Below are positions 4,301 to 30,096 of a stretch of DNA of 64,000 bases, in pieces. A model generated the notes under the pieces. It made no database searches, was not told the origin of the DNA, and worked only from the letters and a program-made list of their open reading frames with translations. Position numbers and translations under genes: made by a program. Source of the DNA: an uncultured Bacteroidales bacterium (lineage in GTDB: Bacteria; Bacteroidota; Bacteroidia; Bacteroidales; UBA1402); assembly GCA_942493385.1 (NCBI GenBank), contig OW818699.1, positions 1,686,808 through 1,750,807 of the forward strand. Direction: 5' to 3'. The number at the start of each line of letters is the position of its first letter. The stretch's first letter is position 1.

Positions 4301-4371
4301 GTTGGTATGGTATCAGGTATAAAGTACAATAACCCTTAGACCTACAGCGATCAAATAGGTTTAAAAGTTGT

Positions 4372-6315
4372 CTATTTGTTGAATAAGCCCGAAAATCCCA
4401 CCTTGTCGGTTCCGAAATAAAATCCGGGATGAGGCGGCTGATTGTACCCAGCATTTTCTGTCGCTACGCCGATGCGGTAAATGGGATCCTGCATGAACGT
4501 GGTGATGCCGTGCTCCGTCGTTTTGTCGGTCATATAGATTCGGATTTCGCGTCCATCCTCGGTAGGCCATATGACTTCTTCACGCCAGTCTCCAAAAATA
4601 TCAGCCGACAAGCAGGGCGTAGCCTTGGTTCCATTGCACCAGCTGATACCTTTTCCTTTGCCGTTAAAAAGAAGGCTCGTGCCGTTGCCAGTCCATTTGT
4701 AGATGTAAATTTTATCCAGCAATTCACGGGTCAGGTCGCCGTCCCACCAGATAGCCATGTTATAAGGGGGAGTGACTTTGGACAGAAGTTTGCCTTTGGC
4801 GGAATAAAGTCCGTTGGTGCCTGAAGACCAAATTTCAAGCCCACGGCTTTCTGGATCGATGTCTGCACAAAGAGCACGACCAACGTCTTGTGTAGAGGGG
4901 TAACCCCAAATCAACTTGCCAGTTGCGGCATTTCGAAGGGATGAACCATTGGGACTGGGTGCATATTCGTGGCATTGCCAGACTTCGAGCCCAGGTTTGT
5001 CAGGATCGATATCCGTCAGGTGCATGGCATCGCCATGGCCCCAACCGGTGCTGTACAATCCAGTTCCGTCATCGTCTATGGCGCACGCCCCGTAAATGAT
5101 TTCATCCTTTCCGTCGTGATCTACGTCCCCGATACGAATGTTGTGGTTGCCCTGATTGGAATAAGCGATGTATTTTTGGTTGTTGGCGTGGGTGTCGAAT
5201 GTCCAGATCTTGGTCATTTTTCCGTTTCTGAAATTCCAGGCTTGTACCACGGACTTGCCGTTGTACCCTCTGCCTACAATGTACGAGGGGCGTTTTCCAT
5301 CCAAATAGGCTACGGCAGAAAGCTGCCTGTCCATGCGGTTTCCGTAATCGTCACCCCATTCAATCATATTGCCTCGGGGTATATAATCTACCCGGTCGAG
5401 TTCCTTGCCGGTAGTACCTTCTATCACAGAAATGAATTCGGGACCACTCAGGATTTTTCCATACGTACGGAGGCTGGCATCCTTGATGACATAGTCAACC
5501 ACACCGTCCATATTGAAATCGCCAATTTTCTTACCGTCGCCGAAAATGGTGCCCTCCGATGTTTTGCAGATCACTTCAGCCTTGCCATCTCCGTCGAAAT
5601 CAAAGACCATGAACGAAAAATACTGGGCGCCTTCACGGACGTTCTTACCAATGTCTATTTGCCAGAGCCTTTTTCCATCCAATTTATAAGCTTCCAAATG
5701 GTTCGTTCCTCCTGAAATTCCAGCTTGTGAACAGGCAAAATTTCCGATTTGGCGTTTTACAATAATTTCATATTCTCCGTCACCGTCCAAATCGCCCACG
5801 GAAGCATCGTTCGGCATGTATGCTCGGGTGGTATCCCAATCGATGGGTGGCAGCTTGATGGAAAGGTAGGGTACCGTTGCCCGTTCTGGCGTGAGCATGT
5901 AGGACACCGCTTTTTTTCGAGATTTGCTCTCCACCAGGATGTATTCCTGAGTGATGGTCGTGTCTACGGACTTGTCGACAAAATAGGTGGCTGTTTTCAA
6001 AGGCTTGTCGTTCAAACGAACTTCCTTTAATTTGGTCACACCTGGGACATGACTTTTACGATACAGGTCGAAACTCACTTTCTTTGAGTCTTCCACCAAT
6101 TTGCGCCAACTCACTGCCACATAACCTTTTCCCTGATGAATGGCAACCAATCCTCGACCCAATTTCTCGAGTTGAAGATTGTTGTAGTTCGGACCGATAG
6201 GGGCTTCGGCAGTGCTCTTCTCTTTTGCCTTTTTTTTGCTACTAGCCGACGGGCAAGTTAGTGAAAAAGCAATAATCCATAAAAATAGGAGTGTTTTGTT
6301 CATAACGATACACAT
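4372..6315 (-). CDS. Rhamnogalacturonan lyase, PL11-like (paralogue)
   Basis: 647-aa ORF with the same loop set (GDLDGDGEYEIIV, DFDGDGKAEVI, GDVDHDGKDEII) and collinear with the neighbouring gene. The true start may be the ATG at 6303 (MNKTLLFLWIIAF...). Confidence 0.7.
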   Translation of the reverse strand: MCIVMNKTLLFLWIIAFSLTCPSASSKKKAKEKSTAEAPIGPNYNNLQLEKLGRGLVAIHQGKGYVAVSWRKLVEDSKKVSFDLYRKSHVPGVTKLKEVRLNDKPLKTATYFVDKSVDTTITQEYILVESKSRKKAVSYMLTPERATVPYLSIKLPPIDWDTTRAYMPNDASVGDLDGDGEYEIIVKRQIGNFACSQAGISGGTNHLEAYKLDGKRLWQIDIGKNVREGAQYFSFMVFDFDGDGKAEVICKTSEGTIFGDGKKIGDFNMDGVVDYVIKDASLRTYGKILSGPEFISVIEGTTGKELDRVDYIPRGNMIEWGDDYGNRMDRQLSAVAYLDGKRPSYIVGRGYNGKSVVQAWNFRNGKMTKIWTFDTHANNQKYIAYSNQGNHNIRIGDVDHDGKDEIIYGACAIDDDGTGLYSTGWGHGDAMHLTDIDPDKPGLEVWQCHEYAPSPNGSSLRNAATGKLIWGYPSTQDVGRALCADIDPESRGLEIWSSGTNGLYSAKGKLLSKVTPPYNMAIWWDGDLTRELLDKIYIYKWTGNGTSLLFNGKGKGISWCNGTKATPCLSADIFGDWREEVIWPTEDGREIRIYMTDKTTEHGITTFMQDPIYRIGVATENAGYNQPPHPGFYFGTDKVGFSGLFNK

Positions 6316-11451: not shown

Positions 11452-12108
11452 ATGATAAACCTATTAATTCTCGGAATTAGCTTTCTGAATCTCACCATAT
11501 TGTCGTCTACATTGCCTGCAATGCCCTACGCGTATGATGCGCTGGAACCCAACATCGATGCAAAAACGATGGAAATTCATTACTCCAAGCATTATCAAAC
11601 CTACCTGACCAACTTTACAAAGGCTATAGCTGGTACGCCTGCAGAAGAAAAATCGGTGGAGGAAATCATGGCAACGGCCGATAAGAATGTGCCTGCCATC
11701 CGAAACAATGGGGGTGGCTATTACAATCACAACTTGTACTTTTCACTCTTGTCTCCGACACCGGCTTTGGCACCCTCGGGACCTCTGGCTCTGGCCATCG
11801 ACGCCAAATGGGGTAGCCTTGACAAATTCAAGGAAGCCATCAACAAAGCGGCTATGGGTCGATTCGGTTCAGGTTGGGCTTGGCTTGTCGTTCAAAATGG
11901 TGTGCTCGACATTTGCTCCACCCCCAATCAGGACAATCCACTCATGCCCGATGCCGGTTGCAGCGGAAAGCCAATCCTGTGCATCGATGTATGGGAGCAT
12001 GCCTATTATTTGAAGTTCCAGAATCGCCGTGCAGATTACCTCACTGCCTTCTGGAATGTCATGGATTGGGATGTTGTTGAGGCACTTTACGAGAAAGCCG
12101 TGCAATAA
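11452..12108 (+). CDS. sodA: Superoxide dismutase, Mn/Fe family (Mn-type or cambialistic signature)
   Basis: [42 protein letters not shown] and DVWEHAYYL carry all four metal ligands. The GG and NQD features are Mn-type. The start is ambiguous: the ATG at 11452 adds a hydrophobic 17-aa extension, the TTG at 11500 would give [10 protein letters not shown] (like E. coli SodA MSYTLPSLPY), and the ATG at 11521 would truncate the conserved N-terminus. Confidence 0.9.
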
Positions 12109-12171
12109 TTTCAGAATGATCGTTGGGTTTTCGGAATTTTTGTATCTTGGGAAGCCTAAACGCTCAGCTAA

Positions 12172-13191
12172 ATGAATATTCCGAAAAACCTGACTACTTT
12201 GGTGGCAGACAAGATACGTCTGGCTCAGACCGGTCTTGCCTATGATGAAGTGATTCTCGAAGACACCCATGTTCCGGTTCTGAAAAACGAATACCTGCTT
12301 TTTCTGAAACCTGAAATCACGATGCCTTCCGAAACCGTTCAACTTGAACCCGTCATCGACCTGATACTGGAACAAATGGACGCCTTCGGTTTTGTCATTC
12401 ACGATGTTCGCATCCTGGCTGCCAGTTATTTGGAAGCATTCAATCTTATTGATCAGCATTACGGTGTCATATCTCTGGTTTCCAATCAGGGCTTAATCGC
12501 AATGACAGAAGGCGCAAAAGCCCGCTTCAAGGAGCTATTTGGCGTGGAAGCCGATGAGTCCAACGTGTTGGGCGGTATGGAGTTCCTCCGGAAATACCCC
12601 TTCTTCAATTTCCATTCACTGGACTGTATGTGGCAAAATTCCGAGAACTTGAAGTTGGCCAGCGGCACCTACGTGGAAAAACTTCGGATAGACCAAGAAA
12701 CCGTCTATGTGCTCAACGCCTTTCACCCCAAACAACTCAGGCATTTTACGGAACCTGGACGCAGCATCGTCCTGTTCAATATTTCAGGAGACCGATCTTG
12801 GAAAGAAGCCAGGGAATCTTTTGCTGGCGCCACCGATCCAAGAAAGGCCGTTTCAGGCAGCCTCCGCCGTCTTTTGATGGAACACAAGGAGGAATTCGGC
12901 ATTCCCGAAGTGTCTCAGAGTTTCAACGGCATCCACCTTTCTGCAGGACCAGTTGAGGCACTGATCGAATTGCACCGATTTGATTCCGATCATTCCAGCC
13001 CCGAAGGTGAAAGCGATTTCAAAGACTTCTCCTTCGGAAAGGACTTGATCAAAACGTTCGGTGAAATACCCGAAGCGTTGCTGAACAATGAAACGATCGA
13101 ATTGGATGGCAAATCAACTTCTATATTTGACCTTACTGAAAATCTCGATTCTGACCAAGCGCTTCTTTTGTTGCAAAAATGTTTGAAATGA
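12172..13191 (+). CDS. NDK-fold (nucleoside-diphosphate-kinase-like) domain protein with insertions
   Basis: By hand alignment to NDK: YLLFLKPEIT matches TFIMIKPDGV, GATDPRKAVSGSLRR matches GETNPADSKPGTIRG, and FNGIHLSAGPVEA matches RNIIHGSDSVKSA with the His retained. Function unknown. Confidence 0.4.
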   Translation: MNIPKNLTTLVADKIRLAQTGLAYDEVILEDTHVPVLKNEYLLFLKPEITMPSETVQLEPVIDLILEQMDAFGFVIHDVRILAASYLEAFNLIDQHYGVISLVSNQGLIAMTEGAKARFKELFGVEADESNVLGGMEFLRKYPFFNFHSLDCMWQNSENLKLASGTYVEKLRIDQETVYVLNAFHPKQLRHFTEPGRSIVLFNISGDRSWKEARESFAGATDPRKAVSGSLRRLLMEHKEEFGIPEVSQSFNGIHLSAGPVEALIELHRFDSDHSSPEGESDFKDFSFGKDLIKTFGEIPEALLNNETIELDGKSTSIFDLTENLDSDQALLLLQKCLK

Positions 13192-18597: not shown

Positions 18598-18635
18598 AAA
18601 AAAAAGAGCTTGTATTAATAATGCAGGCTCTTTTT
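18598..18635. terminator. Bidirectional intrinsic terminator (BCCP gene / gldL)
   Basis: AAAAAGAGC...GCTCTTTTT with additional imperfect inner pairing (TTGTATTA/TAATGCAG). An A-run lies on one side and a T-run on the other. Confidence 0.55.
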
Positions 18636-18654: not shown

Positions 18655-19488
18655 TTATTCTTTCTTCATCATTCCTATCATATTCTTATAATTCTTGTTC
18701 AGGGTCGAGAGGTTACTGTTGAGTTCTTTCATTTGGTCGCGGTATTTCTTAGTTTCGACAGCCGATTCGGACATATCCTTGAGATATTCTTCCGCACCCT
18801 GTACCTGAACCCGATAAATGGAATTCAACGTATTCAAATTTTTGTTGAGCGATTCCAGCTCCATCTGATATTTTTTGGACTCTTCCTCAATCGAAGTCAG
18901 CGAACTGGCAATGCTTTGATATTTGAAGACCGTCTTGGATGTAACTCGCAGGATGGATGATTCATAAGCTTTGGCCAGTCGTTCTAGCGATTCATCGGCA
19001 ATTTCGATGGTTTTCATGTATTTGGTCGAAGCCGCAAAGACATCGCCCATCGTATTCATGTGTTCAGCCGTGTCACCAAGCTTTCGCAGGCCATCTCCGA
19101 AGCGAAGCAATAAATCGGGCGTAATGTCACCATTCATCAACATCTCGTCAAATTTGGCCAGCGCCAGGGATCCATTGCCATCATCCACCAGCTTGCTGTT
19201 CACCCGACGTGGTACAATTTCCTCCTCTTCATCATCAGCACTCAGGATTACGTTTGGATAAACCAAAGGCGGATGTTCATCATCCTGACTTTCAAAAGCG
19301 TAAAAGAAGAAAATGATGGCTTCCGTCACCAAGCCGGCAGTTAGCATGTAATCCGCTCCTGCCCAATGCTCCAATTTGAATAGGGCACCTAATACAACGA
19401 CAGATGCGCCAAAACCATACAGTTTTGTCATGGCAGCCTTAAAGCCCCTGGTCTGCGTCAATCGTTGTATTTGTGCATCTAAGCCCAT
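18655..19488 (-). CDS. gldL: GldL/PorL-like motor protein
   Basis: KLYGFGASVVVLGALFKLEHW and LTAGLVTEAIIFFFYAFE are the two N-terminal TM helices characteristic of GldL. A cytoplasmic coiled-coil-like tail follows. Confidence 0.85.
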   Translation of the reverse strand: MGLDAQIQRLTQTRGFKAAMTKLYGFGASVVVLGALFKLEHWAGADYMLTAGLVTEAIIFFFYAFESQDDEHPPLVYPNVILSADDEEEEIVPRRVNSKLVDDGNGSLALAKFDEMLMNGDITPDLLLRFGDGLRKLGDTAEHMNTMGDVFAASTKYMKTIEIADESLERLAKAYESSILRVTSKTVFKYQSIASSLTSIEEESKKYQMELESLNKNLNTLNSIYRVQVQGAEEYLKDMSESAVETKKYRDQMKELNSNLSTLNKNYKNMIGMMKKE

Positions 19489-19520
19489 AGATCAAATTTT
19501 ATTGTAAAGATAATGCAATT

Positions 19521-21134
19521 TTACTTTATAGTAATGAAGAATGGTGGAAGATTCCGCTTATCATTTCCAGGTCCATTGACAATGATTTCTTCAAATAGTA
19601 GCACTTGTCCTCGATTCGTTCTCCGAATCTCCTGTATCATTTCATCCGTCAGATTATCGTTGGGTGAATCATAATTGTAGGTATTGAAACCACGATCCAT
19701 CGTCAACCTGAAACTTACGACCTGAAAAACGTAATTAAAATCAAAATCCACAGGCATCATCGGTACGATTTTTCCTGCCGAAAGGATATTTTCACGAGTA
19801 ACAAAGCCATCTTTTCTTCCGGAAATGGTAGGAGTCGGATCCGGTAGTTTCTTGATACGAAAAGTTTGCGTGCCTATCAACTTCAAACCATCATTCGACT
19901 TGATGGAAACCGATACGACCGCTTCTTTTGCTGTTGGTGGCACTATACAAATCCATCCGCTACTCTTAGGGTCCTGCTTGATAGTGCCGACAGATATGGT
20001 CGGAGAAAGGTTCTCCATCGGAATTCCAGTGATGGAAACGGACAGTGGATTTTCCACCCCAGCATAAAGTACGTTCATATTGGTGGGAGAAACCGTCACA
20101 ACAGGAGGTGCTACAAAATACTCCCCTTTGAAATGATAGGTCCGTTCACGTCCGGAAGCCGTAGGTACACTTACAAATCCAGCGTATTTTTGCATTCCTA
20201 AAGCAGTAGCTGGAAATTTGATATTTAATTTACCCTTATCCCTTGCTACGAGCGTAGCCTGGCCTTTTTGATCGACCGTCATGCTGTCCACTCCTTTCAT
20301 CAGGTATACGCTTGGACTTGGGGTGTGGCTGGTGTCATAAGCAGCCACAATCACTTCCGCTTCAAAATCATCACCCGTAAACAAATAATTAGTTTTTGGC
20401 AGCACCTTCGCTTCAATCCGGTCGTACTTGAAATCCTCGGCGATGCTTTCCCTAAGAAGTCCATTAACCACTTCCAATTCCGCATTGTTTACTTCCGAAA
20501 TCAATTTGTTCAGAATCGGAATATCGGCTGCCAGCGGAATATCATAGAAGTAATGGTGTTCCCAGCTTTGCAACTTGCCAAAAGCATCTTTGTATTTGTC
20601 CTTCGTGTCAAGACCCAATTGAATATCCTTCCTATTCGACGGATTGATCAGCTTCAAAATCTTTTCCCGATATGCACTTATCTTGTTTTTGAGTTCTCTT
20701 GCCTTACCCTTGGAGCCACTTTCCAAAGGTCCGATCATAATTTGCGTTGGTATCGTATAGTTATCCTTTTTCCGCAAATCTCTAATGCTCATTTTGCGGG
20801 CAGAATCCAAGGGTACCTTCTCTGTGACTGCAATTAATTCGTCTCGCATATTTGCGATGTAACTCACCATCTCGGTCGAAAGCTTCATGGCCACTTTTGC
20901 CTTATCCCAGAATGGACCGACCTCAATTTGGTTCATGGTGAACTCCTTCTGGAATTCTTCCACTGTCATTTTACGTTTATCCGGAAAACTTTCATTGGTT
21001 GAAAGCACGGTGTCATTCACCGTCGAGTAACCCTCCAGCACCTCTTTCGAAACATTCAGGGCCAGCATTGCCGTCAGCACGAGGTACATCATGCCAATGA
21101 GCTTTTGCCTGGGTGATTCTTTTTGGTGGGCCAT
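19521..21134 (-). CDS. gldM: GldM/PorM-like motor/periplasmic shaft protein
   Basis: The N-terminus SPRQKLIGMMYLVLTAMLALNVSKEVLEGY is the GldM signature TM region. Length is 537 aa. The GldM_C-like end reads ...LLFEEIIVNGPGNDKRNLPPFFITIK. Confidence 0.85.
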   Translation of the reverse strand: MAHQKESPRQKLIGMMYLVLTAMLALNVSKEVLEGYSTVNDTVLSTNESFPDKRKMTVEEFQKEFTMNQIEVGPFWDKAKVAMKLSTEMVSYIANMRDELIAVTEKVPLDSARKMSIRDLRKKDNYTIPTQIMIGPLESGSKGKARELKNKISAYREKILKLINPSNRKDIQLGLDTKDKYKDAFGKLQSWEHHYFYDIPLAADIPILNKLISEVNNAELEVVNGLLRESIAEDFKYDRIEAKVLPKTNYLFTGDDFEAEVIVAAYDTSHTPSPSVYLMKGVDSMTVDQKGQATLVARDKGKLNIKFPATALGMQKYAGFVSVPTASGRERTYHFKGEYFVAPPVVTVSPTNMNVLYAGVENPLSVSITGIPMENLSPTISVGTIKQDPKSSGWICIVPPTAKEAVVSVSIKSNDGLKLIGTQTFRIKKLPDPTPTISGRKDGFVTRENILSAGKIVPMMPVDFDFNYVFQVVSFRLTMDRGFNTYNYDSPNDNLTDEMIQEIRRTNRGQVLLFEEIIVNGPGNDKRNLPPFFITIK

Positions 21135-21218
21135 ACTTGATTACTTAATAAATAGGTCCAAGTCGGTTGTGTTTTTGAACATAAATTGTACCTTGATCGT
21201 TATCGTTTGTATGTATTG

Positions 21219-21226
21219 CAAAAGTA
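21219..21226 (-). promoter_or_regulatory. -7 box TACTTTTG upstream of gldM
   Basis: The minus-strand sequence matches TAnnTTTG, 85 nt upstream of the gldM ATG. No convincing -33 element was seen. Confidence 0.25.
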
Positions 21227-21325
21227 TTCGATGTTTTGCATATTTCCTAATGCGGCACATAATTCTCAAATTATCAGAAAAGAAGAATCCCAGCCAATTT
21301 CAGGCGCTATTTGGAGCATAATTTG

Positions 21326-21793
21326 TTATTGTAACCTATAATTCAAAGTTACTGCATAGGTGCCCGGGTGTAACTGCGAAAAATCAGAAATGAAAACATT
21401 CTGAGTAAGGATGACTGTTTTATTGCTTGCATACCATATACCTGTAATTATTGATTGATAATAGGTAGCGACGGTAACTAACCCTGTGGTGGAGCCTGCC
21501 CAATTACCACTAGGCTGTGCTGCCTGAACGGTATAGGTCATGCCAGGTGGGACAGAGTTGGATAAAATATCGATGTTTCCAACAATACCATCGCCTAAAA
21601 ATGGCCATGAATATTTGACAGATTGTGACGTGTAAGCAACTATTGGGTTAGCTGGAGTAGCTCCTGCTGTTGATGTTTGAAGCGTATAAGCGTTGGGACT
21701 CAATGTCAAAGGGGTTAAGGAAATCCTGCTTTGTGCCCAAGTACTACCACCCAACAAGGTAATAAACAATAGAAAAAAACATCTTTTATTCAT
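21326..21793 (-). CDS. Small secreted pilin-like protein (post-usher position)
   Basis: Signal peptide ending TWAQ. The mature N-terminus has alternating hydrophobics (RISLTPLTL). The C-terminus HPGTYAVTLNYRLQ resembles the GxY...Y-x-Q end of chaperone-usher/SCPU-type subunits. Confidence 0.45.
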   Translation of the reverse strand: MNKRCFFLLFITLLGGSTWAQSRISLTPLTLSPNAYTLQTSTAGATPANPIVAYTSQSVKYSWPFLGDGIVGNIDILSNSVPPGMTYTVQAAQPSGNWAGSTTGLVTVATYYQSIITGIWYASNKTVILTQNVFISDFSQLHPGTYAVTLNYRLQ

Positions 21794-21799
21794 AATCGG

Positions 21800-24424
21800 T
21801 CACTTTTTAATTAGATTATTCTGGAATTGAATTTGTCTTGCTTTCTTTTGAATGACGACATCAATTTTTTCGTGTTTCCCGGAAGTCAAATCAATGGTGA
21901 AATTACTATTTAAAAGTTTATAACCCAAAGGTATTCCATTAGGATATATTTTTATTTGCCATTTGTCTGGTCGTAAGTCATCAAAACGGAACGTACCTTC
22001 CTTGTTAGTATAAATTCGGTAAATATCCTTGCCGTTGCTTGCTTCCACAATGAGCTTTTCAATGGTTTCCTTGACTGGAATGTAGCCCTTTTGATTGGCA
22101 CGTTCATCTTCTTGAACCATTATTCGTCCTGAAATACTGCCCGAAGATGTTAAGGCACATTCAAACAACGTCACTTTGCTGGGTTCTACAAGAATCTTGA
22201 ATGGGCCTGGCGTTTCCGTTATCGTATTCAACCCCATGGAGGAAGCATCGATGTTCATCAGGTACTCTCCTACAGGAATTGCTGGAAACTTGAAATTGCC
22301 ATCTTTATCGGTAATGCAAATATTTCCGTTCAGATTCAACAAAAGCCCACCAACCTTTTCCACTCCATGATTGATGATCTTGCCGCTCACACTCCCAATA
22401 TTTTTCTTTTTAGCTATGGGCATGTTCAAATTGTGAACATAGCGCAATTGAACGTTGTATTCTTTTTTGTCAAGGGTGTTTTTAACTAGGTTGTAGTTGG
22501 CTGTCAGGTTTATTTCGTTGTTGTCGTTAATTCGTCCGAAAAGGTTCATCGAGAACAAACTTCTGTCTGAGGTATAGTAACGCCACTCATAATTACTGTT
22601 GTATTGCAGTGATAACGATAGGCGGTCCTTCATATTGGCAATAAATGAACCACCATAATAAAACTGATCAAAACCTGTCACATTTTTTTGCCCACCCTGA
22701 TAGGTGGAGAATGCACTGGCTGAAAAACTTTTATTGAATATGTAGAACATGGTAAAAGTACTGTTGTAGAACAACGACTCATCCACTACTATTCCGGGTA
22801 GATGATTTTGCATTTTTCCAACATCGGCAATCAGTGCCAGGTTGAACGACTTTAATTTGCTTTGAAGGGATATTCTACCACTTGTTTTGTCGTAATCAAA
22901 CAAAGGTGTTGGTGATTGGTCTTCTAAGCTAACCATATTGCCTGCCAAGGATAAGGTATTTTGCTGTGAAATTCTATAACTGGCAGTCATATTGATGTTT
23001 TTGCTGTGGGGCATGTTGGCATACAACGTATCCAATGCCATATTGGTGCTGTTTACGTCGTAATTGACCGAAAGTGAAAACTTCTTCAACTGAATGGCGG
23101 ACCCGACATTCATACGAAGGCTGTTGGTAACGAATCCAGGAAAATTGGGTTCTGCAAACAGGTATACCAAATGCGTGCTGAATTTGGGGATATTGAGATT
23201 TATGGTTGCCTTGTAAGCTTTTGTTAATTTTGAAGTGGCTTGTCCCATTGCCAGTTCTGCTTCCGTGCTGATAATGGAGAAAAGATTGTTGTGTGCAGAA
23301 ATCGTATACAATTGCGTGCGATTGTTCAATGTATCCGATTTCGTTAGGAATCCGGCCGACAATCCGTTCCTGGGGTCGAAATTGAACGATGAATAGGCCG
23401 CTGCCACTTGTTTGATTAGTGGATAATAACGTGGTACATTGTAGTAGGTCCCAATGGTCCATTTGTTCAAACGATACCGCAGTTCAAGCCCACGTCCGTT
23501 TCTGGAGGACTCTGTCAATTCACTTAATCCGAAATTATAGTCTCCTACAGCTGTAAAAAATTTTGAGGTACGAAATTTGAGATAATACTCATCATTCAAG
23601 CCAAATAATGGATTACCCGTTCTATCGGGACCGCGCAGGTGAAAATCAACGTTGGTATCCCCTTTTTTCCCAATCGCACCTGTACCCTGAATGTCGTACA
23701 TGCTACTTATCATTTGATTGCCCAACCGATTGCTGGCTGCAAAAATTCCAGATATTTTGATAGGAAAGCGTTCGTATTTGTCAAACTTGACCGCTTCAGA
23801 TGGAAATATGTCGTACGAAGAATACACTGAAGATTCTGTCTCCGGCTTGTCAACTACTTGCGCTATCAAAATGACCGATTGTTGCGTATGACCGTCAACT
23901 TTTTTTGCCGTTTTCGAATGAAAAGTTGTTACAATACCAGAATCCTTTGGAATGGAGAATTCTTCAATCTTACTTTCGGATCCCCTGAGTGTAGTCGTCT
24001 TTATTTTTACATCCAAATTGGAGAAATTCTGAATGAGATAACTTATGTTCACCTCATCACCTGAAAATATATACGAAGGAGATTTCAATTTTGTAATTGA
24101 AATCTCATATTTTGGCCTTACTTGAATGGGTATGTCAATTTTTCCGAACGGAATGTGACCAGGCAACTCCAACACTTCAACAGACAGATTAAAGTCACCG
24201 GCACGGATACTCTGTGATATTTGTATACCGATAACTTTTTTTAGACTGGAATTCTTTTCGATCTTGATGGATGAATAATCCGCAATCAACTTGCCGTTCA
24301 CTTCGTTGTTGCTAAACTTGATTTGAGCTTCTTTATCTTCGTTCGTAGGATTGTTGATCACTACAAGCATGTTGATGGTAGCGCCCGGTTCAACTTCTTT
24401 TTTTTGTGGTGAAAGTACCTTCAA
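21800..24424 (-). CDS. Outer-membrane beta-barrel protein with periplasmic beta-sandwich domains (usher-like); 5' end requires a frameshift to reach the ATG at 24501
   Basis: The track ORF starts at a TTG. The frame stays open 37 more codons upstream and encodes ...NRFNCFFLIVLRSSALA. Two N-terminal Ig/CARDB-like repeats cover about aa 1-215. A central ~470 aa has an amphipathic beta-strand pattern (LRYRLNKWTIGTYYN, SLSLQYNSNYEWRYY). Two C-terminal CarboxypepD_reg-like domains follow (GSVSGKIINHG...DKDGNFKF and GSISGRIMVQ...NKEGTFRFDDL). Confidence 0.5.
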   Translation of the reverse strand: MKVLSPQKKEVEPGATINMLVVINNPTNEDKEAQIKFSNNEVNGKLIADYSSIKIEKNSSLKKVIGIQISQSIRAGDFNLSVEVLELPGHIPFGKIDIPIQVRPKYEISITKLKSPSYIFSGDEVNISYLIQNFSNLDVKIKTTTLRGSESKIEEFSIPKDSGIVTTFHSKTAKKVDGHTQQSVILIAQVVDKPETESSVYSSYDIFPSEAVKFDKYERFPIKISGIFAASNRLGNQMISSMYDIQGTGAIGKKGDTNVDFHLRGPDRTGNPLFGLNDEYYLKFRTSKFFTAVGDYNFGLSELTESSRNGRGLELRYRLNKWTIGTYYNVPRYYPLIKQVAAAYSSFNFDPRNGLSAGFLTKSDTLNNRTQLYTISAHNNLFSIISTEAELAMGQATSKLTKAYKATINLNIPKFSTHLVYLFAEPNFPGFVTNSLRMNVGSAIQLKKFSLSVNYDVNSTNMALDTLYANMPHSKNINMTASYRISQQNTLSLAGNMVSLEDQSPTPLFDYDKTSGRISLQSKLKSFNLALIADVGKMQNHLPGIVVDESLFYNSTFTMFYIFNKSFSASAFSTYQGGQKNVTGFDQFYYGGSFIANMKDRLSLSLQYNSNYEWRYYTSDRSLFSMNLFGRINDNNEINLTANYNLVKNTLDKKEYNVQLRYVHNLNMPIAKKKNIGSVSGKIINHGVEKVGGLLLNLNGNICITDKDGNFKFPAIPVGEYLMNIDASSMGLNTITETPGPFKILVEPSKVTLFECALTSSGSISGRIMVQEDERANQKGYIPVKETIEKLIVEASNGKDIYRIYTNKEGTFRFDDLRPDKWQIKIYPNGIPLGYKLLNSNFTIDLTSGKHEKIDVVIQKKARQIQFQNNLIKK

Positions 24425-24470
24425 CTCCAGTTTACTATCAATAGCCAGAGCGGAAGAACGTAATACTATT

Positions 24471-24479
24471 AAAAAAAAA
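24471..24479 (-). repeat. T9 homopolymer (minus strand), either a -1 slippery site or an indel-prone tract at the usher-like gene 5' end
   Basis: The minus strand reads ATG TTT CGA ATC GTT TCA ATT GTT TTT TTT TAA. A -1 shift, or one extra T, joins MFRIVSIVFF to LIVLRSSALAIDSK... in the main frame. Confidence 0.6.
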
Positions 24480-24532
24480 CAATTGAAACGATTCGAAACA
24501 TCTATCAGGTTTTTGACAATCTGCGCCTCACC

Positions 24533-25333
24533 CTAAAAATAAAGTGTATATTCCAATCCAAATACATCATCATCCGCACCAGCGGCAACGATCATGGCCG
24601 TATATGTTTTTTTGGATGGAACACCCTCTAAGTCCAACTTGAATCGGGCTGAAGTGGTTGGATATAAACCACGTTTGGGTGCTGTAATTTTTTTAACCAA
24701 AATGCCGTCTTGATCATATAGTTCAATGCTGACTTCAGGAGCGATGTAGTGTTGACCTTCGTTCAACAAGTCGATGGCTAGGTAAAGTTTCTTGCCTTCT
24801 TCGGCTTTTATAAGGGTAGGATCCATGAACTTGAGTTTTCCTGTACCCCTATTGTTGATTTCATTGACTACTTGAACCGCATATCTTGTTGCAGTCCGAA
24901 TACTTAAGTCACCCTTCTGATTCGGGTCAATAGGATCAACACCTTCAACCATGATGACGCTCCAGTAAGAGCCAATGATGGAGTCGCCTTTTGGAACTGT
25001 TATTTCATATTCAACATTACGTGATTCCTTGCTTTTTAAGACGACAGTTCTTGGACTATATTGTATCCAACTGGCATTGGATCGTTTTTGTCCACCAGGT
25101 TCATCGTAAAAGGTTTGTTCTTGAAAGTTGAATAGGAAATCTGTTTGGTAGATTCTAACTTCCTGATCGGCGGCATCATTATTTTGAATCTTAATTTGTC
25201 CCTTGACAACATCACCGGGATTGGTATTGTATACTTGCTTTAAACTTCCAATAACTTCGACGGATGCCATTAAACCTACGGGAAGTAAAAATAAGTAGCA
25301 AATAAACAGGATAAGCTTTTTGTTTAGCATCAT
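24533..25333 (-). CDS. Periplasmic two-beta-sandwich protein (chaperone-like, PapD/DUF916-like pattern)
   Basis: Signal peptide (LLPVGLMA). The segments VVKGQIKIQNNDAADQEVRIY and YSPRTVVLKSKESRNVEYEITVP...SYWSVIMVEG resemble the Ig-like chaperone pattern. It lies immediately upstream of the barrel gene. The fold is not verified. Confidence 0.4.
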   Translation of the reverse strand: MMLNKKLILFICYLFLLPVGLMASVEVIGSLKQVYNTNPGDVVKGQIKIQNNDAADQEVRIYQTDFLFNFQEQTFYDEPGGQKRSNASWIQYSPRTVVLKSKESRNVEYEITVPKGDSIIGSYWSVIMVEGVDPIDPNQKGDLSIRTATRYAVQVVNEINNRGTGKLKFMDPTLIKAEEGKKLYLAIDLLNEGQHYIAPEVSIELYDQDGILVKKITAPKRGLYPTTSARFKLDLEGVPSKKTYTAMIVAAGADDDVFGLEYTLYF

Positions 25334-25515: not shown

Positions 25516-26094
25516 CTATTGAACTGCCGTCAATGTAAAAGTGACAACAATTTGTGCACCAGTGGTGGCTCGTAGTGTTCCATACGTGGCTGGATTGACA
25601 TCCAACGCATAACTGAACTTCAATGGGTATCCGTCTGCTGCTCCCTTACCTGAATAACAGGATGCGATATTGGTAATAATCGGCCTGTCTGTACCATCCA
25701 AAGTTGTCGGAGCAATAAAGACTCCTGTTTCACCTGCAAAATTGGAGTTTGGTTGTAAAACCGAAAGTTCAAGATGGGTGCCTGGAGGTACGGTTCCTGC
25801 TGTAATCTTTGCCGAAAGTGTTCGAGTCATTGAAGAGGAGATCACAGAAGACATCAAGAGTCTGGCTGTAGAGTCAGATGCGCTTACTTCAACGGAAAGC
25901 CCGGCATCTTGCTGGTTTAATTGCAAATTGATGAGGTCGGCACTTGTTTTTACCAACGAGACTTCCGTAATTCCCAGCGTAATGGTCGTAGACGAAGAAT
26001 TGGTTGCGCTCGTAGAACCCTCCTGGGCGAAAACTCTATAACTGTTTAACAACAGTGCGCAAAATATTCCAATGATCGATAGCTTTTTATACAT
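25516..26094 (-). CDS. Secreted pilin-like paralogue P1
   Basis: Signal peptide ...RVFAQ. Family motifs are RLLMSS, TRTLSAKI, SCYSGKGAADGY and the C-terminal IVVTFTLTAVQ. Its ATG overlaps the upstream gene's stop (ATGTATAA). Confidence 0.5.
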   Translation of the reverse strand: MYKKLSIIGIFCALLLNSYRVFAQEGSTSATNSSSTTITLGITEVSLVKTSADLINLQLNQQDAGLSVEVSASDSTARLLMSSVISSSMTRTLSAKITAGTVPPGTHLELSVLQPNSNFAGETGVFIAPTTLDGTDRPIITNIASCYSGKGAADGYPLKFSYALDVNPATYGTLRATTGAQIVVTFTLTAVQ

Positions 26095-26650
26095 TGGTAT
26101 CGGATGCTACAGTGGAAATGGTATAAGTAACAATAATAGTTGCACTTCTAAGGATTGGCGCGTTTGGGATGGCCTTGTAAACGTATCGGATAACATAACC
26201 GTCATCCTCCGTTTTTCCCGACCAACAGGTTCCAATTCCTTCTGCAAGAGTTACTTCCGTTTCGTTCGAAAGTAGTTTTTCGCCCGTAAGAGAACCTCGA
26301 TTTTCTGGATAAACAAAATTACCGTTAGGTTCCTTCAATTCTACATGAAGTGTAGTGCCAACCAATGCCTCCGAAATTTTGGCGGTGATGGCTCTCGTTT
26401 CGCCGTTATTTACAAGTGACGAAATCCTTAATCGAGACTTGTCATTCTCGGCAGCTTGTTGAATCGCATCACCAGCCTCAACAGCACCCGCCAATATCAA
26501 CTTGACGGGTGGCCCTGCTACAGCCAGTAAAGCAGACCCAGCTACTTGGAGGTCAATGGATTGTGTAACAACCCTTGTGTCCTGAGCATAGACTGATAAG
26601 GGCATCAGCAATAAGGAAAGACCTATAAAATATACAAATACCCTTTTCAT
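26087..26650 (-). CDS. Secreted pilin-like paralogue P2
   Basis: Start taken at the ATG at 26650 (MKRVFVYFIGLSLLLMPLSVYAQ); the track begins at a TTG at 26671. Motifs are RLRISS, TRAITAKI, TCWSGKTEDDGY and IIVTYTIS. Confidence 0.5.
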   Translation of the reverse strand: MKRVFVYFIGLSLLLMPLSVYAQDTRVVTQSIDLQVAGSALLAVAGPPVKLILAGAVEAGDAIQQAAENDKSRLRISSLVNNGETRAITAKISEALVGTTLHVELKEPNGNFVYPENRGSLTGEKLLSNETEVTLAEGIGTCWSGKTEDDGYVIRYVYKAIPNAPILRSATIIVTYTISTVASDTNV

Positions 26651-26727
26651 AGTCGATATCATATCATACAATGTCTCTCAAACCTTAAAAGGTTCTAAAG
26701 ACATTTGAAAAAAAATTAACAACGAAA

Positions 26728-27324
26728 TTATACCGCTGCTGTGATCGTGTATGTAATGACTATGTTTTGACTTTGCATGAAGGTCGCATCGGCTTTTTTG
26801 GCATATCTATATGTTACAGTATAACCATCATTGTCACCCATGCCCGACCAGCAAGTTGTTATGTCAGAAACTATCGTCTTGCTCGAACCATCTGTCAATT
26901 CTTGTTCTGTAGCAGGTGTACCACCATTGGCTACTGCTGGAAGAAAACTTTCTGGTTTGGTGAGTGAAACGAAAAATTGGGTACCTGTATTTGTGATTGC
27001 AGGGGAAATGCTTGCAGTAATAGTCCTCGTTTTTCCACTCTCAACCAGGGAAGATATCCTAAGTCTCGTGTCCGAATTGCTGGCCTGATCCATGACGGCC
27101 GCACCAGCTTGTGTTGCTCCGGACAAGGACATCGAAACAGCTGTGGAAGTACCAGCATTAATGTTTGTATTGAAAACAGCCAACAATGCGGAGCCATTTA
27201 CTTGAAGGGCGATGTTCTGTGAGACATCAGCGCCGGAATTCCCTGGGTTTTGTGCCGTCGCGATCATAGGCAAAGTAGTGCCGATAAGTAAAGCGATGCA
27301 TTTTAATAACGATGTTTTTTTCAT
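26728..27324 (-). CDS. Secreted pilin-like paralogue P3
   Basis: 198 aa with signal peptide ...IATAQ. Motifs are RLRISS, TRTITASI, TCWSGMGDNDGY and NIVITYTITAAV. Confidence 0.5.
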   Translation of the reverse strand: MKKTSLLKCIALLIGTTLPMIATAQNPGNSGADVSQNIALQVNGSALLAVFNTNINAGTSTAVSMSLSGATQAGAAVMDQASNSDTRLRISSLVESGKTRTITASISPAITNTGTQFFVSLTKPESFLPAVANGGTPATEQELTDGSSKTIVSDITTCWSGMGDNDGYTVTYRYAKKADATFMQSQNIVITYTITAAV

Positions 27325-27409
27325 TTTATTGAATGTTTTAGCTTTTGGATGTTTCTCAGTTTATATCAACGACTTTGTAATGAGCAAAAGATAAGCCGAG
27401 ACTTCCAAA

Positions 27410-28006
27410 TTATACTTCGGCAGTAATTGTATAGGTGATGACGATGTTCTGACTTTGTAGGAAAGTAGCATCAACTTTCTTGGCATAACGGTAAGTGACA
27501 ACGTAACCATCCGTTGCACCTGTACCTGACCAGCAGGTTGTAATGGCAGAAACGACAGTCTTGGTTGTTCCGTCAGTCAGTTCTTGTTCAGCTGCAGCAG
27601 TTCCACCATTGGCAGCAACAGGTTGAAAGGTTCCGGGTCTTGTCAGTGCAACAAAAAACTGTGTTCCAGAAGTTGTAATTGCTGGAGCGATGGCTGCAGT
27701 AATGGTTCTGGTCTTGCCGCTTTCAACAAGTGACGAAATTCTAAGTCTGGTGTCAGCGTTTGTGGTTTGATCCAAAATGGCCGCACCAGCTTGTGTGGCA
27801 CCGGTCAATGACATGGAAACAGCCGTAGAAGTTCCTGCATCGGCATTGGTGTTTACAACCGCCAATAGAGCAGACCCGTCTACTTTAAGTGTAATATCCT
27901 GTGTAACAGTTGCAGCAGATCCGCCGGGATTTTGAGCGGAAGCGAAGAGGGGCATGGCTAAACAAGTCAATAATGCGATGCTTTTGACCAATGAAGACTT
28001 TTTCAT
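27410..28006 (-). CDS. Secreted pilin-like paralogue P4 (candidate major subunit)
   Basis: 198 aa with 146/198 identical positions to P3 by ungapped hand alignment. It follows a 312-bp regulatory gap that has its own -7 box. Confidence 0.5.
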   Translation of the reverse strand: MKKSSLVKSIALLTCLAMPLFASAQNPGGSAATVTQDITLKVDGSALLAVVNTNADAGTSTAVSMSLTGATQAGAAILDQTTNADTRLRISSLVESGKTRTITAAIAPAITTSGTQFFVALTRPGTFQPVAANGGTAAAEQELTDGTTKTVVSAITTCWSGTGATDGYVVTYRYAKKVDATFLQSQNIVITYTITAEV

Positions 28007-28318: not shown

Positions 28319-28891
28319 TCAATTGCTTGTTATCGTGTATGTGACTGTTATCGGTGCATTGGCTATCGCTCTAAGTAGAGCATAGTTCGCTGGATCAACA
28401 CTCCAGTAGTAGGTGAGGTTGAACCCATTTGTTGACGAAGATCCGGTATACCCACTGCCAATGCTGTTTATAAGCGTTGTGTTGATATTCTTGAGCAAAG
28501 TGATCTGGCCCGATGGTGTTCCGCGGTTACCAGAACCTGAAGAAGAGCTAGACGCAGTCAGTTTGAGGAGCGTACCGGCAGGTACAAATCCGCTAGTGAC
28601 GGATGCCATGATCCTTCGAGTTTGGTTGGCTGGAGCAATGGATGTTAATTGCAAGTAAGATGCATTATTTGTTTTTGGAGAAGTTGTTTCCCCTGCAACT
28701 GAGGCCAATAAGTTCATACTGATTGTAGTCAAAGGATTAATTCGGATAAGGCTCACATCATTGATGGTTATAGTGAACACATTAGTAGTATAGACCTGAG
28801 CAGTTGCTTTTCCGTACAAGACCAGTGAAAGAACGATAAACAAAAGATACTTCCACCTATAGGTTGAATTTCGAATGGTGGTGTTATTCAT
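28319..28891 (-). CDS. Secreted pilin-like paralogue P5 (divergent, Cys-less motif)
   Basis: Signal peptide ...GKATAQ. Motifs are TRRIMASV, GSGYTGSSSTNGF and PITVTYTITSN. Its ATG overlaps the P6 stop (ATGAATAA). Confidence 0.45.
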   Translation of the reverse strand: MNNTTIRNSTYRWKYLLFIVLSLVLYGKATAQVYTTNVFTITINDVSLIRINPLTTISMNLLASVAGETTSPKTNNASYLQLTSIAPANQTRRIMASVTSGFVPAGTLLKLTASSSSSGSGNRGTPSGQITLLKNINTTLINSIGSGYTGSSSTNGFNLTYYWSVDPANYALLRAIANAPITVTYTITSN

Positions 28892-29453
28892 CTGAATTGA
28901 TTGTATAAATTACACGAATACGTAAATTGGCAAGTAGTTCGCTTTGAATGTAATCCGGATCATAGCCCGGTTTGAGTTCCCATGAAAAAGTTAGCAAGTG
29001 CCCTTTGTTATCTCCTTGGCCAGTGTAACAAGATCCAATATCTGTGATGATTGCCTGAGGTGCCGTAGATAAATAGATGGGAATGGCCGGTTTCCCAACT
29101 TGCCCGTAACCGGCACCGATATCTGGTCCGACTTTCAGCTTAATGGCGATTTCAGCAGGTAAGTCGCCTGAAGCAAGGCTTGCACAAATCGTATTGGTTG
29201 AATTGCTTACGATGACAGAGGAATAATTAATCCAAATCGTATCCACGGTCGATGGCGCTAGTTTCCGATCTTTGCCTTCGCCAGTGAAAAGAGAGAACTT
29301 GAGTTCGGAAGATCCCATGCTCAACTTGGCGCTTGGTGGTATGGCCATTTGGACCGGCAATTTGCCAGTGTTGTCGTTCTCTTGAGCTTGCAGGCGGAAG
29401 TCTGCAACAATCAAAAGCAATGTGAACATAAATACGTTGTACGTCATTCTCAT
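28884..29453 (-). CDS. Secreted pilin-like paralogue P6 (divergent)
   Basis: Start taken at the ATG at 29453 (MRMTYNVFMFTLLLIVADFRLQAQ), preceded by AAGGAGG-caag; the track begins at a TTG at 29474. Motifs are SCYTGQGDNKGH and RIRVIYTINSDE. Confidence 0.45.
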   Translation of the reverse strand: MRMTYNVFMFTLLLIVADFRLQAQENDNTGKLPVQMAIPPSAKLSMGSSELKFSLFTGEGKDRKLAPSTVDTIWINYSSVIVSNSTNTICASLASGDLPAEIAIKLKVGPDIGAGYGQVGKPAIPIYLSTAPQAIITDIGSCYTGQGDNKGHLLTFSWELKPGYDPDYIQSELLANLRIRVIYTINSDE

Positions 29454-29463
29454 CTTGCCTCCT

Positions 29464-30096
29464 TTAATATACAATGCCTTGCTTCATAGCATACTTGACC
29501 AGTTGGGCTAAGTTGTCAAACCCCATTTTGTCAAAGATGTTCTGTTTGTGTGTTCCAACCGTCTTAATGCTGATATAAAGAGATTCGGAAACTTCACGTA
29601 CAGATCTACCCTCAGCCAAAAGCCCTAGTATTTGTGTTTCCCGTTTTGTCAAAGTGGCAGATAAATTGGTGTTCCTTCCAAGGTATTCATCGATGATAAT
29701 GCTTTCAACATCCATACCCACTGCCTTTTTTCCATTATTTATTTGCCTGATGCCGTTCAATAAGTGTTCGAAAGTGCAGTTCTTCAAGTAATATCCATGA
29801 ACACCGGCTGTCAACGCTCCTTTAATATGTATTTTTTCAGAATGTGATGTTAATGCAATTATTTTGCAATTTGGGTGCTCCATCAGGATCATCTGAGTTG
29901 TTTCAATGCCCTTCAACCGAGGTAGACATATATCCATGATTACCATATTCGGTCGCTTTTCTTTTACCCTTGAAAGAACTTCAACCTGATCCTCTGCTTC
30001 TCCGATGGCTTCAATATCGTCGGTTTCGCTGAATCTGTAGGCAAGAAGTTCCCTGAACAACTTATTATCATCTGCAAGTAAAACAGATATCTTCAT
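29464..30096 (-). CDS. Response regulator, NarL/FixJ (LuxR-type HTH) family, no adjacent kinase
   Basis: Receiver domain (LLADDN..., MVIMDICLP, KIIALTSH) plus a C-terminal LuxR HTH (LTKRETQILGLLAEGRSVREVSESLYISIKTVGTHKQNIF). Confidence 0.85.
   Translation of the reverse strand: MKISVLLADDNKLFRELLAYRFSETDDIEAIGEAEDQVEVLSRVKEKRPNMVIMDICLPRLKGIETTQMILMEHPNCKIIALTSHSEKIHIKGALTAGVHGYYLKNCTFEHLLNGIRQINNGKKAVGMDVESIIIDEYLGRNTNLSATLTKRETQILGLLAEGRSVREVSESLYISIKTVGTHKQNIFDKMGFDNLAQLVKYAMKQGIVY

Follow-up and report, generated by a model that had tools for sequence, protein, structure and literature searches.

The question raised by the locus described here is whether a pair of motor genes, found in inverted order and away from its usual companions, still serves the type IX secretion system or has become the motor of another envelope machine. 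The sequence analyzed, called the window in the following, is a stretch of 64,000 nucleotides (64 kb) from an uncultured Bacteroidales bacterium (contig OW818699.1), and its own coordinates are used unless another locus is named. On its minus strand, gldM (21134..19521, 537 amino acids, aa) lies upstream of gldL (19488..18655, 277 aa) with a gap of 32 nucleotides (nt), exactly as placed in the first-pass annotation. Only a few families of ion-driven rotary motors are known, GldLM among them, and to our knowledge this motor serves type IX secretion and gliding alone. The two genes, designated here gldM' and gldL', form the 3' end of a module of 12 genes (30096-18655, minus strand, approximately 11.4 kb), in which a response regulator, six small paralogs, a 266-aa protein, a large outer-membrane barrel and a seventh paralog precede them. 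It is thus a GldLM motor in a new genetic context. The pair is considered to be, with fair probability, a dedicated and functional GldLM-type motor of a chaperone-usher-like or WxL-like fibre module, and not a part of the type IX core, its coupling to that module being the inferred part of this reading.

Both motor proteins are full length, as had been proposed. GldM' scores 338.9 bits against the PorM/GldM equivalog model TIGR03517 (cut-off 180), matches the Pfam domains GldM_1st, GldM_2nd, GldM_3rd and GldM_4th end to end, all over their cut-offs, and aligns with PorM (7cmg) over residues 7-534. GldL' reaches 123.7 bits against the PorL/GldL equivalog TIGR03513 (cut-off 68.3, residues 19-273) and 82.7 bits against Pfam GldL_N, and is aligned over its full length with the solved chains 7sau, 7sax, 7saz, 6ys8 and 7sat. 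The E values of the GldM and GldL family matches (5.5e-101 and 1.1e-35, respectively) lie far outside chance.

The residues which couple the motor to proton flow are also retained. In Flavobacterium johnsoniae, Glu49 of GldL and Tyr17 of GldM are invariant, Tyr13 of GldL and Arg9 of GldM are important, and Lys27 and His30 of GldL contribute (10.1101/2020.05.11.089193; 10.1101/2022.01.28.478170). GldM' of the window keeps Arg9 and Tyr17, and GldL' keeps Tyr24, Lys38, His41 and Glu56, the counterparts of Tyr13, Lys27, His30 and Glu49; the intramembrane Glu of GldL and the transmembrane Arg of GldM, singled out in the first-pass annotation as the residues to be inspected, are therefore both conserved. 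Arg9 is found in all 10 module-linked GldM' proteins and Tyr17 in all sequences displayed, and the Tyr, Lys, His and Glu residues of GldL' are shared by all six GldL' proteins. The nonsynonymous divergence (dN) is 0.06-0.13 and the synonymous divergence (dS) is saturated. Judged by these sequence features, the motor looks intact, functional and under purifying selection, and since it belongs to the same families and carries the same essential residues (Arg and Tyr in GldM', Tyr, Lys, His and Glu in GldL'), it most likely works by the same 5:2 proton-driven rotary mechanism.

In order to place the inverted order among related loci, a census was compiled from 80 loci among the matches listed (one genome per species), together with other fetched loci and the window, and genes were assigned by ORF calling and phmmer. 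Fifty-four census loci read PorP-K-L-M-N and about 18 more are truncated or duplicated variants of this order. In all canonical variants L stands before M and N after it, and in one of these loci (L011) the Pfam domains of each gene bear the assignment out; the canonical order given in the first-pass annotation is thus the one observed. Loci that hold both the barrel and the 266-aa protein all read C-B-M-L or C-B-M (C, chaperone-like protein; B, barrel), the window being classified "C-B-M-L" only in the phmmer census. Over the 10 kb around the module loci, the census shows no K, N or PorP gene. In the window itself, neither GldK (FGE-sulfatase) nor GldN was found, in agreement with the first-pass annotation, and PorP/SprF was likewise absent, both in Pfam scans of the large ORFs and in a phmmer scan in which verified GldK, GldN and PorP sequences were used as queries against all ORFs of 70 aa or more.

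The association of the motor pair with the barrel family is constant in the loci seen. Homologs of the window GldM at 80%, 64% and 54% identity sit in equal gene series, two of the three with wholly different flanks, and the full series recurs with differing flanks in six loci (L001, L003, L005, L007, L094 and L095). The last two were retrieved from the opposite direction: a search that started from the barrel gave two further barrel homologs on contigs outside the GldM match list, and both are located in complete modules ending with GldM-GldL. The matches of the barrel family and of GldM' share more than 20 contigs, and in pairwise distance GldM' follows both the barrel (r = 0.92) and the 266-aa protein (r = 0.95). 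The module recurs in many uncultivated Bacteroidales, with members labelled Paludibacter, Prolixibacteraceae, Porphyromonadaceae and Lentimicrobiaceae. A chance adjacency of the M-L pair to the barrel was considered and is rejected by this synteny census. In many modules GldM' is found without any gldL, as in L008, L009, L031 and the widespread L087-L089 type (22 contigs).

The phylogenetic trees, constructed by neighbour-joining with 100 bootstraps, separate the module proteins from the canonical ones. Among 1.84 billion representative proteins, the window GldM scores 730 bits within its own clade, then 473 bits, followed by a continuum from 402 bits down. The module-linked GldM' proteins are monophyletic (95%) and stand apart from all 70 GldMs of canonical order, with a canonical PorP-K-L-M-N pair (L011/L012) as their sister (100%). 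They are further divided into one subclade with GldL' and one without it (100% each). GldL' is also monophyletic (100%), and it is placed beside another canonical clade (78%), not once beside the GldL of L011/L012 (0%). This phylogeny, which the first-pass annotation had proposed as a check, shows that GldM' and GldL' come from separate canonical lineages. The existence of a distant motor-less relative (L090), of modules with GldM' only and of modules with both genes fits a stepwise recruitment. The simplest history that the sequences offer is a module that existed alone, then captured a gldM copy at its 3' end and later acquired, downstream of this copy, a gldL that stems from a different lineage. 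Under this history the M-before-L order arises because the two genes were recruited stepwise and separately.

The modules without gldL add an indirect argument, which is the main one for GldM' being an extra copy. GldM needs a GldL ring, so a second gldL must exist in the genomes with GldL-less modules, and gldL adjoins gldM in essentially all canonical loci which retain both genes. A second, canonical copy in the genome of the window is predicted from these modules and from the type IX cargo encoded in the window. In sum, the proposal of a paralogous or rewired motor paired with the 874-aa barrel agrees with the constant synteny, the separate clade, the parallel distances of motor and barrel, the absence of K and N near any module and the existence of GldL-less modules.

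The same data bear on the plainest alternative, that is, an ordinary single-copy type IX motor of the lineage which was displaced from gldK and gldN and came to lie beside an unrelated cluster by rearrangement. The scores of the pair over the PorM/GldM and PorL/GldL equivalog cut-offs and the retention of all coupling residues are what such a motor would show, and cargo of a type IX system is encoded in this genome (Por_Secre_tail, 32.4 bits, at 58403-60145). A rearrangement of this kind is nevertheless very unlikely. In all loci seen, and despite differing flanks, GldM' (with or without GldL') goes together with the barrel module, its clade is distinct from the 70 canonical-order GldMs, the two proteins descend from different canonical lineages, and the modules lacking gldL require another gldL, which canonically adjoins gldM. 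In addition, canonical operons are present in Lentimicrobiaceae (L012, L015, L036 and others), a family which also has module members.

If the pair is not displaced, the nature of its partners has to be considered. The features of the module and its borders are the following:

29464..30096, minus strand: response regulator of the NarL/LuxR type with which the module begins (Pfam Response_reg and GerE).
28884..29474, minus strand: small secreted subunit of class s1, 196 aa, with signal peptide; positional orthologs in L001, L003 and L005; aligns with all other classes; no Pfam family.
28319..28891, minus strand: small secreted subunit of class s2, 190 aa (alignment with the paralogs).
27410..28006, minus strand: small secreted subunit s3, 198 aa, tandem duplicate of s4 (74% identity).
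26728..27324, minus strand: small secreted subunit s4, 198 aa (alignment with the paralogs).
26087..26671, minus strand: small secreted subunit s5, 194 aa (alignment with the paralogs).
25516..26094, minus strand: small secreted subunit of class s6, 192 aa, the best-conserved class (62-64% identity to the L001 and L003 orthologs).
24533..25333, minus strand: two-Ig-domain (immunoglobulin-like) WxLIP/PapD-like protein, 266 aa, putative periplasmic chaperone (AlphaFold2 model, fold matches).
21800..24501, minus strand: predicted usher-like outer-membrane protein, with the ORF of 874 aa at 24424..21800 (AlphaFold2 model, fold matches).
24471..24479, minus strand: T9 homopolymer (A9 on the plus strand) in the signal-peptide codons of the barrel gene, the frameshift site.
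21326..21793, minus strand: seventh subunit paralog, class x, 155 aa, distant paralog of s1; the N-terminal ~15-20 residues are absent in the alignment.
21135..21325, minus strand: intergenic spacer of 191 nt upstream of gldM', with a TAnnTTTG-type motif at 21226..21219.
19521..21134, minus strand: GldM', 537 aa, a transmembrane helix with Arg9 and Tyr17 and the periplasmic domains D1-D4 (TIGR03517, Pfam, structure alignment).
18655..19488, minus strand: GldL', 277 aa, two transmembrane helices with Tyr24, Lys38, His41 and Glu56 and a cytoplasmic tail (TIGR03513, Pfam, structure alignment).
18598..18635, minus strand: terminator-like hairpin with a U-run directly 3' of gldL' (-11.3 kcal/mol, z = -2.0, a modest value).

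Database records for the barrel, for the 266-aa protein and for the subunits carry the name "hypothetical protein" throughout. The AlphaFold2 model of the 266-aa protein (pLDDT 77) shows a signal peptide and two beta-sandwich domains. Its best fold matches in the PDB are the WxLIP structures 9i1y/9i25 of Enterococcus (E = 1.7e-9), followed by the chaperones FimC, CfaA, CsuC, Caf1M, YadV and CupB2 (E = 1e-8 to 1e-7, target-normalised TM-scores 0.47-0.56). At the level of sequence, the match to Pfam WxLIP_PGBD is weak (E = 0.09), no PapD match was found in Pfam and the family profile found no match among PDB sequences. A distant homolog in L090 provides the link: it matches WxLIP_HBD with 36.9 bits (cut-off 28.9) and WxLIP_PGBD with 25.6 bits, just under the cut-off of 27.3, and is related to the window protein with an hhalign probability of 99.95%. 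The domain order, PGBD and then HBD, is also that of WxLIP. The protein is 62-74% conserved across loci. Residues 67-93 are its only poorly modelled region, yet they are among the most conserved. They correspond to the hairpin of WxLIP, which is disordered alone and turns into the strand by which the WxL partner has its beta-sandwich completed (PMC10599100). No C-terminal transmembrane anchor was detected: the last residues (...VFGLEYTLYF) form a beta-strand and the model has no C-terminal helix.

The barrel belongs to a family of 114 proteins. Its model, computed with AlphaFold2 on 40 homologs (pLDDT 86), has a barrel of ~24-27 strands, preceded by two Ig-like domains at the N-terminus and followed by two beta-sandwich domains at the C-terminus. 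The ten best PDB fold matches are all FimD/PapC ushers (E = 1.5e-14 to 9e-10), with ~740-820 aligned columns over the full length including the terminal domains, and the next class of folds, the TonB-dependent transporters, starts near E 1e-7. No match to Pfam Usher (PF00577) was obtained at E <= 0.01, and the C-terminal domains show weak matches of the CarboxypepD_reg/SpaA type.

The second place of the TonB-dependent transporters brings in another explanation, in which the barrel would be an energised, TonB-like outer-membrane gate for some other import or export, with the small proteins as periplasmic or surface binding proteins which do not polymerise. The lack of a plug insertion of the usher kind and of a pilin family for the subunits would agree with such a gate, and an inner-membrane 5:2 motor acting with an outer-membrane barrel is the Ton/Tol paradigm (PMC9389320, PMC12905483). 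The usher matches, however, are better by about 7 orders of magnitude and extend over the whole length including the terminal domains, a WxLIP/PapD-like protein with a conserved and predicted strand-donating hairpin is encoded beside the barrel, and the paralogous subunits are kept in positional classes of which one is without the N-terminal segment, a pattern typical of fibre operons. A gate of this type is accordingly rated as distinctly unlikely, and the usher-like reading of the barrel is preferred.

The barrel is the only gene of the module which is not intact. The 874-aa ORF has no signal peptide. Translation probably starts at the ATG at 24501, and a -1 frameshift lies between this codon and the ORF. 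A single T added to the T9 tract (24471-24479) restores MFRIVSIVFFLIVLRSSALA in frame, and intact relatives carry T10 (L093) or C+T9 (L092) at the same place. In the deposited annotation the product is shortened at its N-terminus to 856 aa. The loss of the barrel signal peptide and the shortened annotation could mean that the module is switched off or decaying in this genome, and that the M-L pair has no current function. This is regarded as highly improbable: the 874 codons downstream of the slip are intact, their dN/dS against intact relatives (0.02-0.06) is equal to that of the intact-intact pair, and all other module genes are intact. The change of one base in a homopolymer of 9-10 nt is equally likely to be a sequencing error or a reversible slip. 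Given the intact codons, the unchanged dN/dS and the tract lengths of the relatives, the frameshift is thus best read either as an artefact of sequencing or as an on/off switch by reversible strand slippage.

The seven small paralogs are mutually homologous, and their positional classes are kept between genomes. The six s-class proteins are of ~190 aa and carry signal peptides. All classes but x share an N-terminal segment of alternating hydrophobic residues (~15-20 residues); class x is without it and is always located between the barrel and GldM'. Neither a fimbrial nor a pilin family was detected for the subunits with Pfam and the PDB profile search, no WxL domain was matched at E <= 10 by 26 subunits or by those of L090, and Pfam scans gave no type IX C-terminal sorting domain on the small subunits. 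Within the window (26728-28006), s3 and s4 represent a recent tandem duplication, and the number of middle-class subunits varies from 0 to 3 between genomes.

In respect of expression, the response regulator is in the equivalent position in L001, L003, L005, L087, L094 and L095. The spacer of 191 nt upstream of gldM' is found in this genome only, the gaps between x and gldM' being 3-12 nt in the other loci. It contains TACTTTTG, which fits the Bacteroides -7 promoter consensus (TAnnTTTG), and it may hold an internal promoter for gldM' and gldL'. Matches to promoters of the sigma-70 type are no more common than in shuffled sequence, with a scan model that excludes promoters of Bacteroidetes. 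At the other end, the hairpin at 18598..18635 sits between the convergent gldL' and a biotin-carboxyl-carrier gene; its loop is long and it was missed by the terminator scan.

The regulator and the spacer have to be weighed together with the GldL-less modules, since they fit an explanation in which GldM'L' is an alternative, separately regulated isoform working on the regular GldK/N ring or the gliding track, with a fibre module, for example of surface adhesins, that is simply co-regulated. GldM' of the GldL-less modules presumably pairs with a canonical GldL, and neither its transmembrane helix nor its D4 has diverged more than the rest of the protein. Against this isoform, the subunits lack the type IX C-terminal sorting domain, gldM' is packed 3-12 nt after the post-barrel subunit gene in the other loci, and the usher-like barrel and the chaperone-like protein are always present, so that an export route independent of type IX is encoded. 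The isoform is unlikely on this evidence, and a motor dedicated to the fibre module is favoured.

Under the favoured reading, a ring of five GldL' would surround a periplasm-spanning GldM' dimer, and this ring could be formed by GldL' or by a borrowed GldL. The transmembrane helix of GldM' is 81-86% identical to that of canonical GldM, which fits an apparent capacity to work with a foreign GldL. The seven small paralogs would be exported by Sec and held in the periplasm by the 266-aa protein, whose hairpin 67-93 would complete their beta-sandwich. The usher-like barrel would then receive the subunits and assemble or expose them at the cell surface, and the N-terminally shorter paralog encoded beside it may be a specialised end subunit. 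The distal domains of GldM' would act on the barrel through its Ig-like or prealbumin-like domains in the periplasm, and torque or conformational work derived from the proton-motive force could gate translocation, drive polymerisation or move the fibre. The NarL-type regulator would control the module.

Several points weigh against this reading. Faster divergence of D4 was looked for as a sign of a change of partner by comparing the identities of the domains, and none was found: D4 of GldM' has diverged no more than D1-D3 (33% identity to canonical GldM, vs 37-38% among canonical proteins), hence the sequence carries no signature of a partner switch. The TM-scores of the barrel to the ushers are low (0.26-0.37), and the secondary-structure string of the model has no domain-sized plug insertion between the barrel strands (217-685); one of the terminal domains might close the pore instead. 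The subunits have no relatives by sequence in Pfam or the PDB, as judged by profile and Pfam scans, and for this reason a strand-exchange fibre is a conjecture. The barrel gene of the window is frameshifted within its signal-peptide codons. The related module L090 is without GldM, which implies that the motor is not intrinsically required by such a machine. Finally, the contact between GldM' and the barrel is inferred.

The module L090 is distant from that of the window (barrel identity 28%) and contains subunits, a WxLIP-type protein, the barrel and a two-domain subunit; no motor gene was found in the 1.1 kb left before the end of the contig. In the two-domain subunit (12754-13785 of L090, the gene after the barrel), a subunit domain is fused to an additional C-terminal domain of ~170 aa, an arrangement like that of tip adhesins with two domains or of "long WxL" proteins.

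Other loci show variants of the same parts. L095 (68-13765) holds two complete modules in tandem, of which the first ends with the barrel and the short subunit without a motor and the second with GldM'-GldL'; both barrels may be served there by a single motor pair. In L013 (11708-13375), a second GldM-like protein of 555 aa directly follows GldM'. It has the four periplasmic domains and a replaced N-terminus without the helix of Arg9 and Tyr17, and by its sequence it is a motor-uncoupled periplasmic rod of GldM. In the GldL-less type represented by L087/L088, a hybrid histidine kinase with HisKA_3 (11655-13166, minus strand) converges on gldM'. NarL/LuxR regulators are usually partnered by kinases of the HisKA_3 class, and this one is a likely cognate sensor of the module regulator; no such kinase adjoins the module in the window. 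In L094 (1-3122), from a Bacteroidales metagenome-assembled genome, genes for a methyl-accepting chemotaxis protein, two CheW and CheR adjoin the module on the opposite strand. Chemotaxis-type genes are unusual for Bacteroidales.

Outside the module, the window is typical of Bacteroidales. The cargo protein mentioned above is one of two with type IX C-terminal sorting domains (18-2171 and 58403-60145, both on the plus strand); the first is under the Pfam cut-off (20.9 bits) and the second over it, and the genome is accordingly expected to encode a type IX system. Large polysaccharide-utilisation loci of the rhamnogalacturonan/rhamnogalacturonan II (RG-II) type extend over 2219-6315 and 32348-60145. 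They include two family-11 rhamnogalacturonan lyases, BT_1020-like, DUF6298 and DUF3826 genes, a rhamnosidase and two SusC/SusD pairs, a content which suggests a pectin/RG-II degrading anaerobe.

The comparison with known systems starts from the motor. With the GldLM/PorLM structures (6ys8, 7sat-7saz, 7cmg), the pair shares the full-length families, the transmembrane helix and D1-D4 of GldM, the two transmembrane helices and tail of GldL, and the essential residues. Compared with gldKLMN/porKLMN, the order is M-L (L-M in all 70 canonical loci), there is no adjacent gldK, gldN or porP, the pair ends an usher/WxLIP-like cluster, its proteins form separate clades, and GldL' is optional. The series of module alone, module with GldM', and module with GldM' and GldL' is a natural comparison of the contribution of the motor.

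The remaining parts recall the chaperone-usher pili (FimC/FimD, PapD/PapC, CsuC/CsuD, Caf1M), with which the module shares paralogous secreted subunits, a two-Ig periplasmic protein and an outer-membrane protein of ~900 aa, whose large barrel is flanked by beta-sandwich domains at both termini. On the other hand, it has no Pfam matches to Usher, PapD_N/C or fimbrial families, its TM-scores are low and no plug is inserted. The classical chaperone-usher pathway needs no energy source, whereas the module carries a motor driven by the proton-motive force. If the tentative wider claim of a new class of machine, taken up below, is true, this would be the first energy-coupled "usher", with a surface fibre of Bacteroidota that is extruded, rotated or retracted by the proton-motive force. 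A motor wired to such a machine would also challenge the textbook view of usher-type fibre assembly as energy-free. We know of no chaperone-usher pathway from the host phylum, and full-text literature searches gave no description of chaperone-usher-like systems in Bacteroidota or of a GldLM pair in such a module.

Similarly, the WxL/WxLIP (DUF916-DUF3324) clusters of Firmicutes (Enterococcus, Lactobacillus; 9i1y, 9i25) share with the module the best fold, the order of the two domains and the long hairpin of domain 1, as well as the logic of one WxLIP-like protein with at least two small beta-rich secreted proteins, one perhaps with extra domains. The module differs in its diderm host, the unanchored WxLIP-like protein, the absence of a WxL match in Pfam and the added outer-membrane barrel and motor. 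Chaperone-usher-like systems would, if the reading holds, be extended to Bacteroidota and linked structurally to these clusters. A wider claim, that the module represents a new class of envelope machine, a chaperone-usher-like fibre platform evolutionarily tied to the Gram-positive WxL/WxLIP systems which has captured a GldLM rotary motor, is put forward as a tentative one, with doubts that exceed those attached to the dedicated motor.

The last comparison, with TonB-ExbBD and TolQRA, is an analogy only. The module contains no ExbB, ExbD or TonB domains, GldM is a rigid dimeric rod of four domains in place of a TonB-type linker, and the barrel is without the plug of TonB-dependent transporters. 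The shared concept is that the periplasm-spanning subunit of a proton motor acts on a particular outer-membrane barrel which it serves or with which it is encoded. If this applies to GldM', GldLM would be a portable power unit like ExbBD and TolQR, with the fibre module as its third client besides type IX secretion and gliding.

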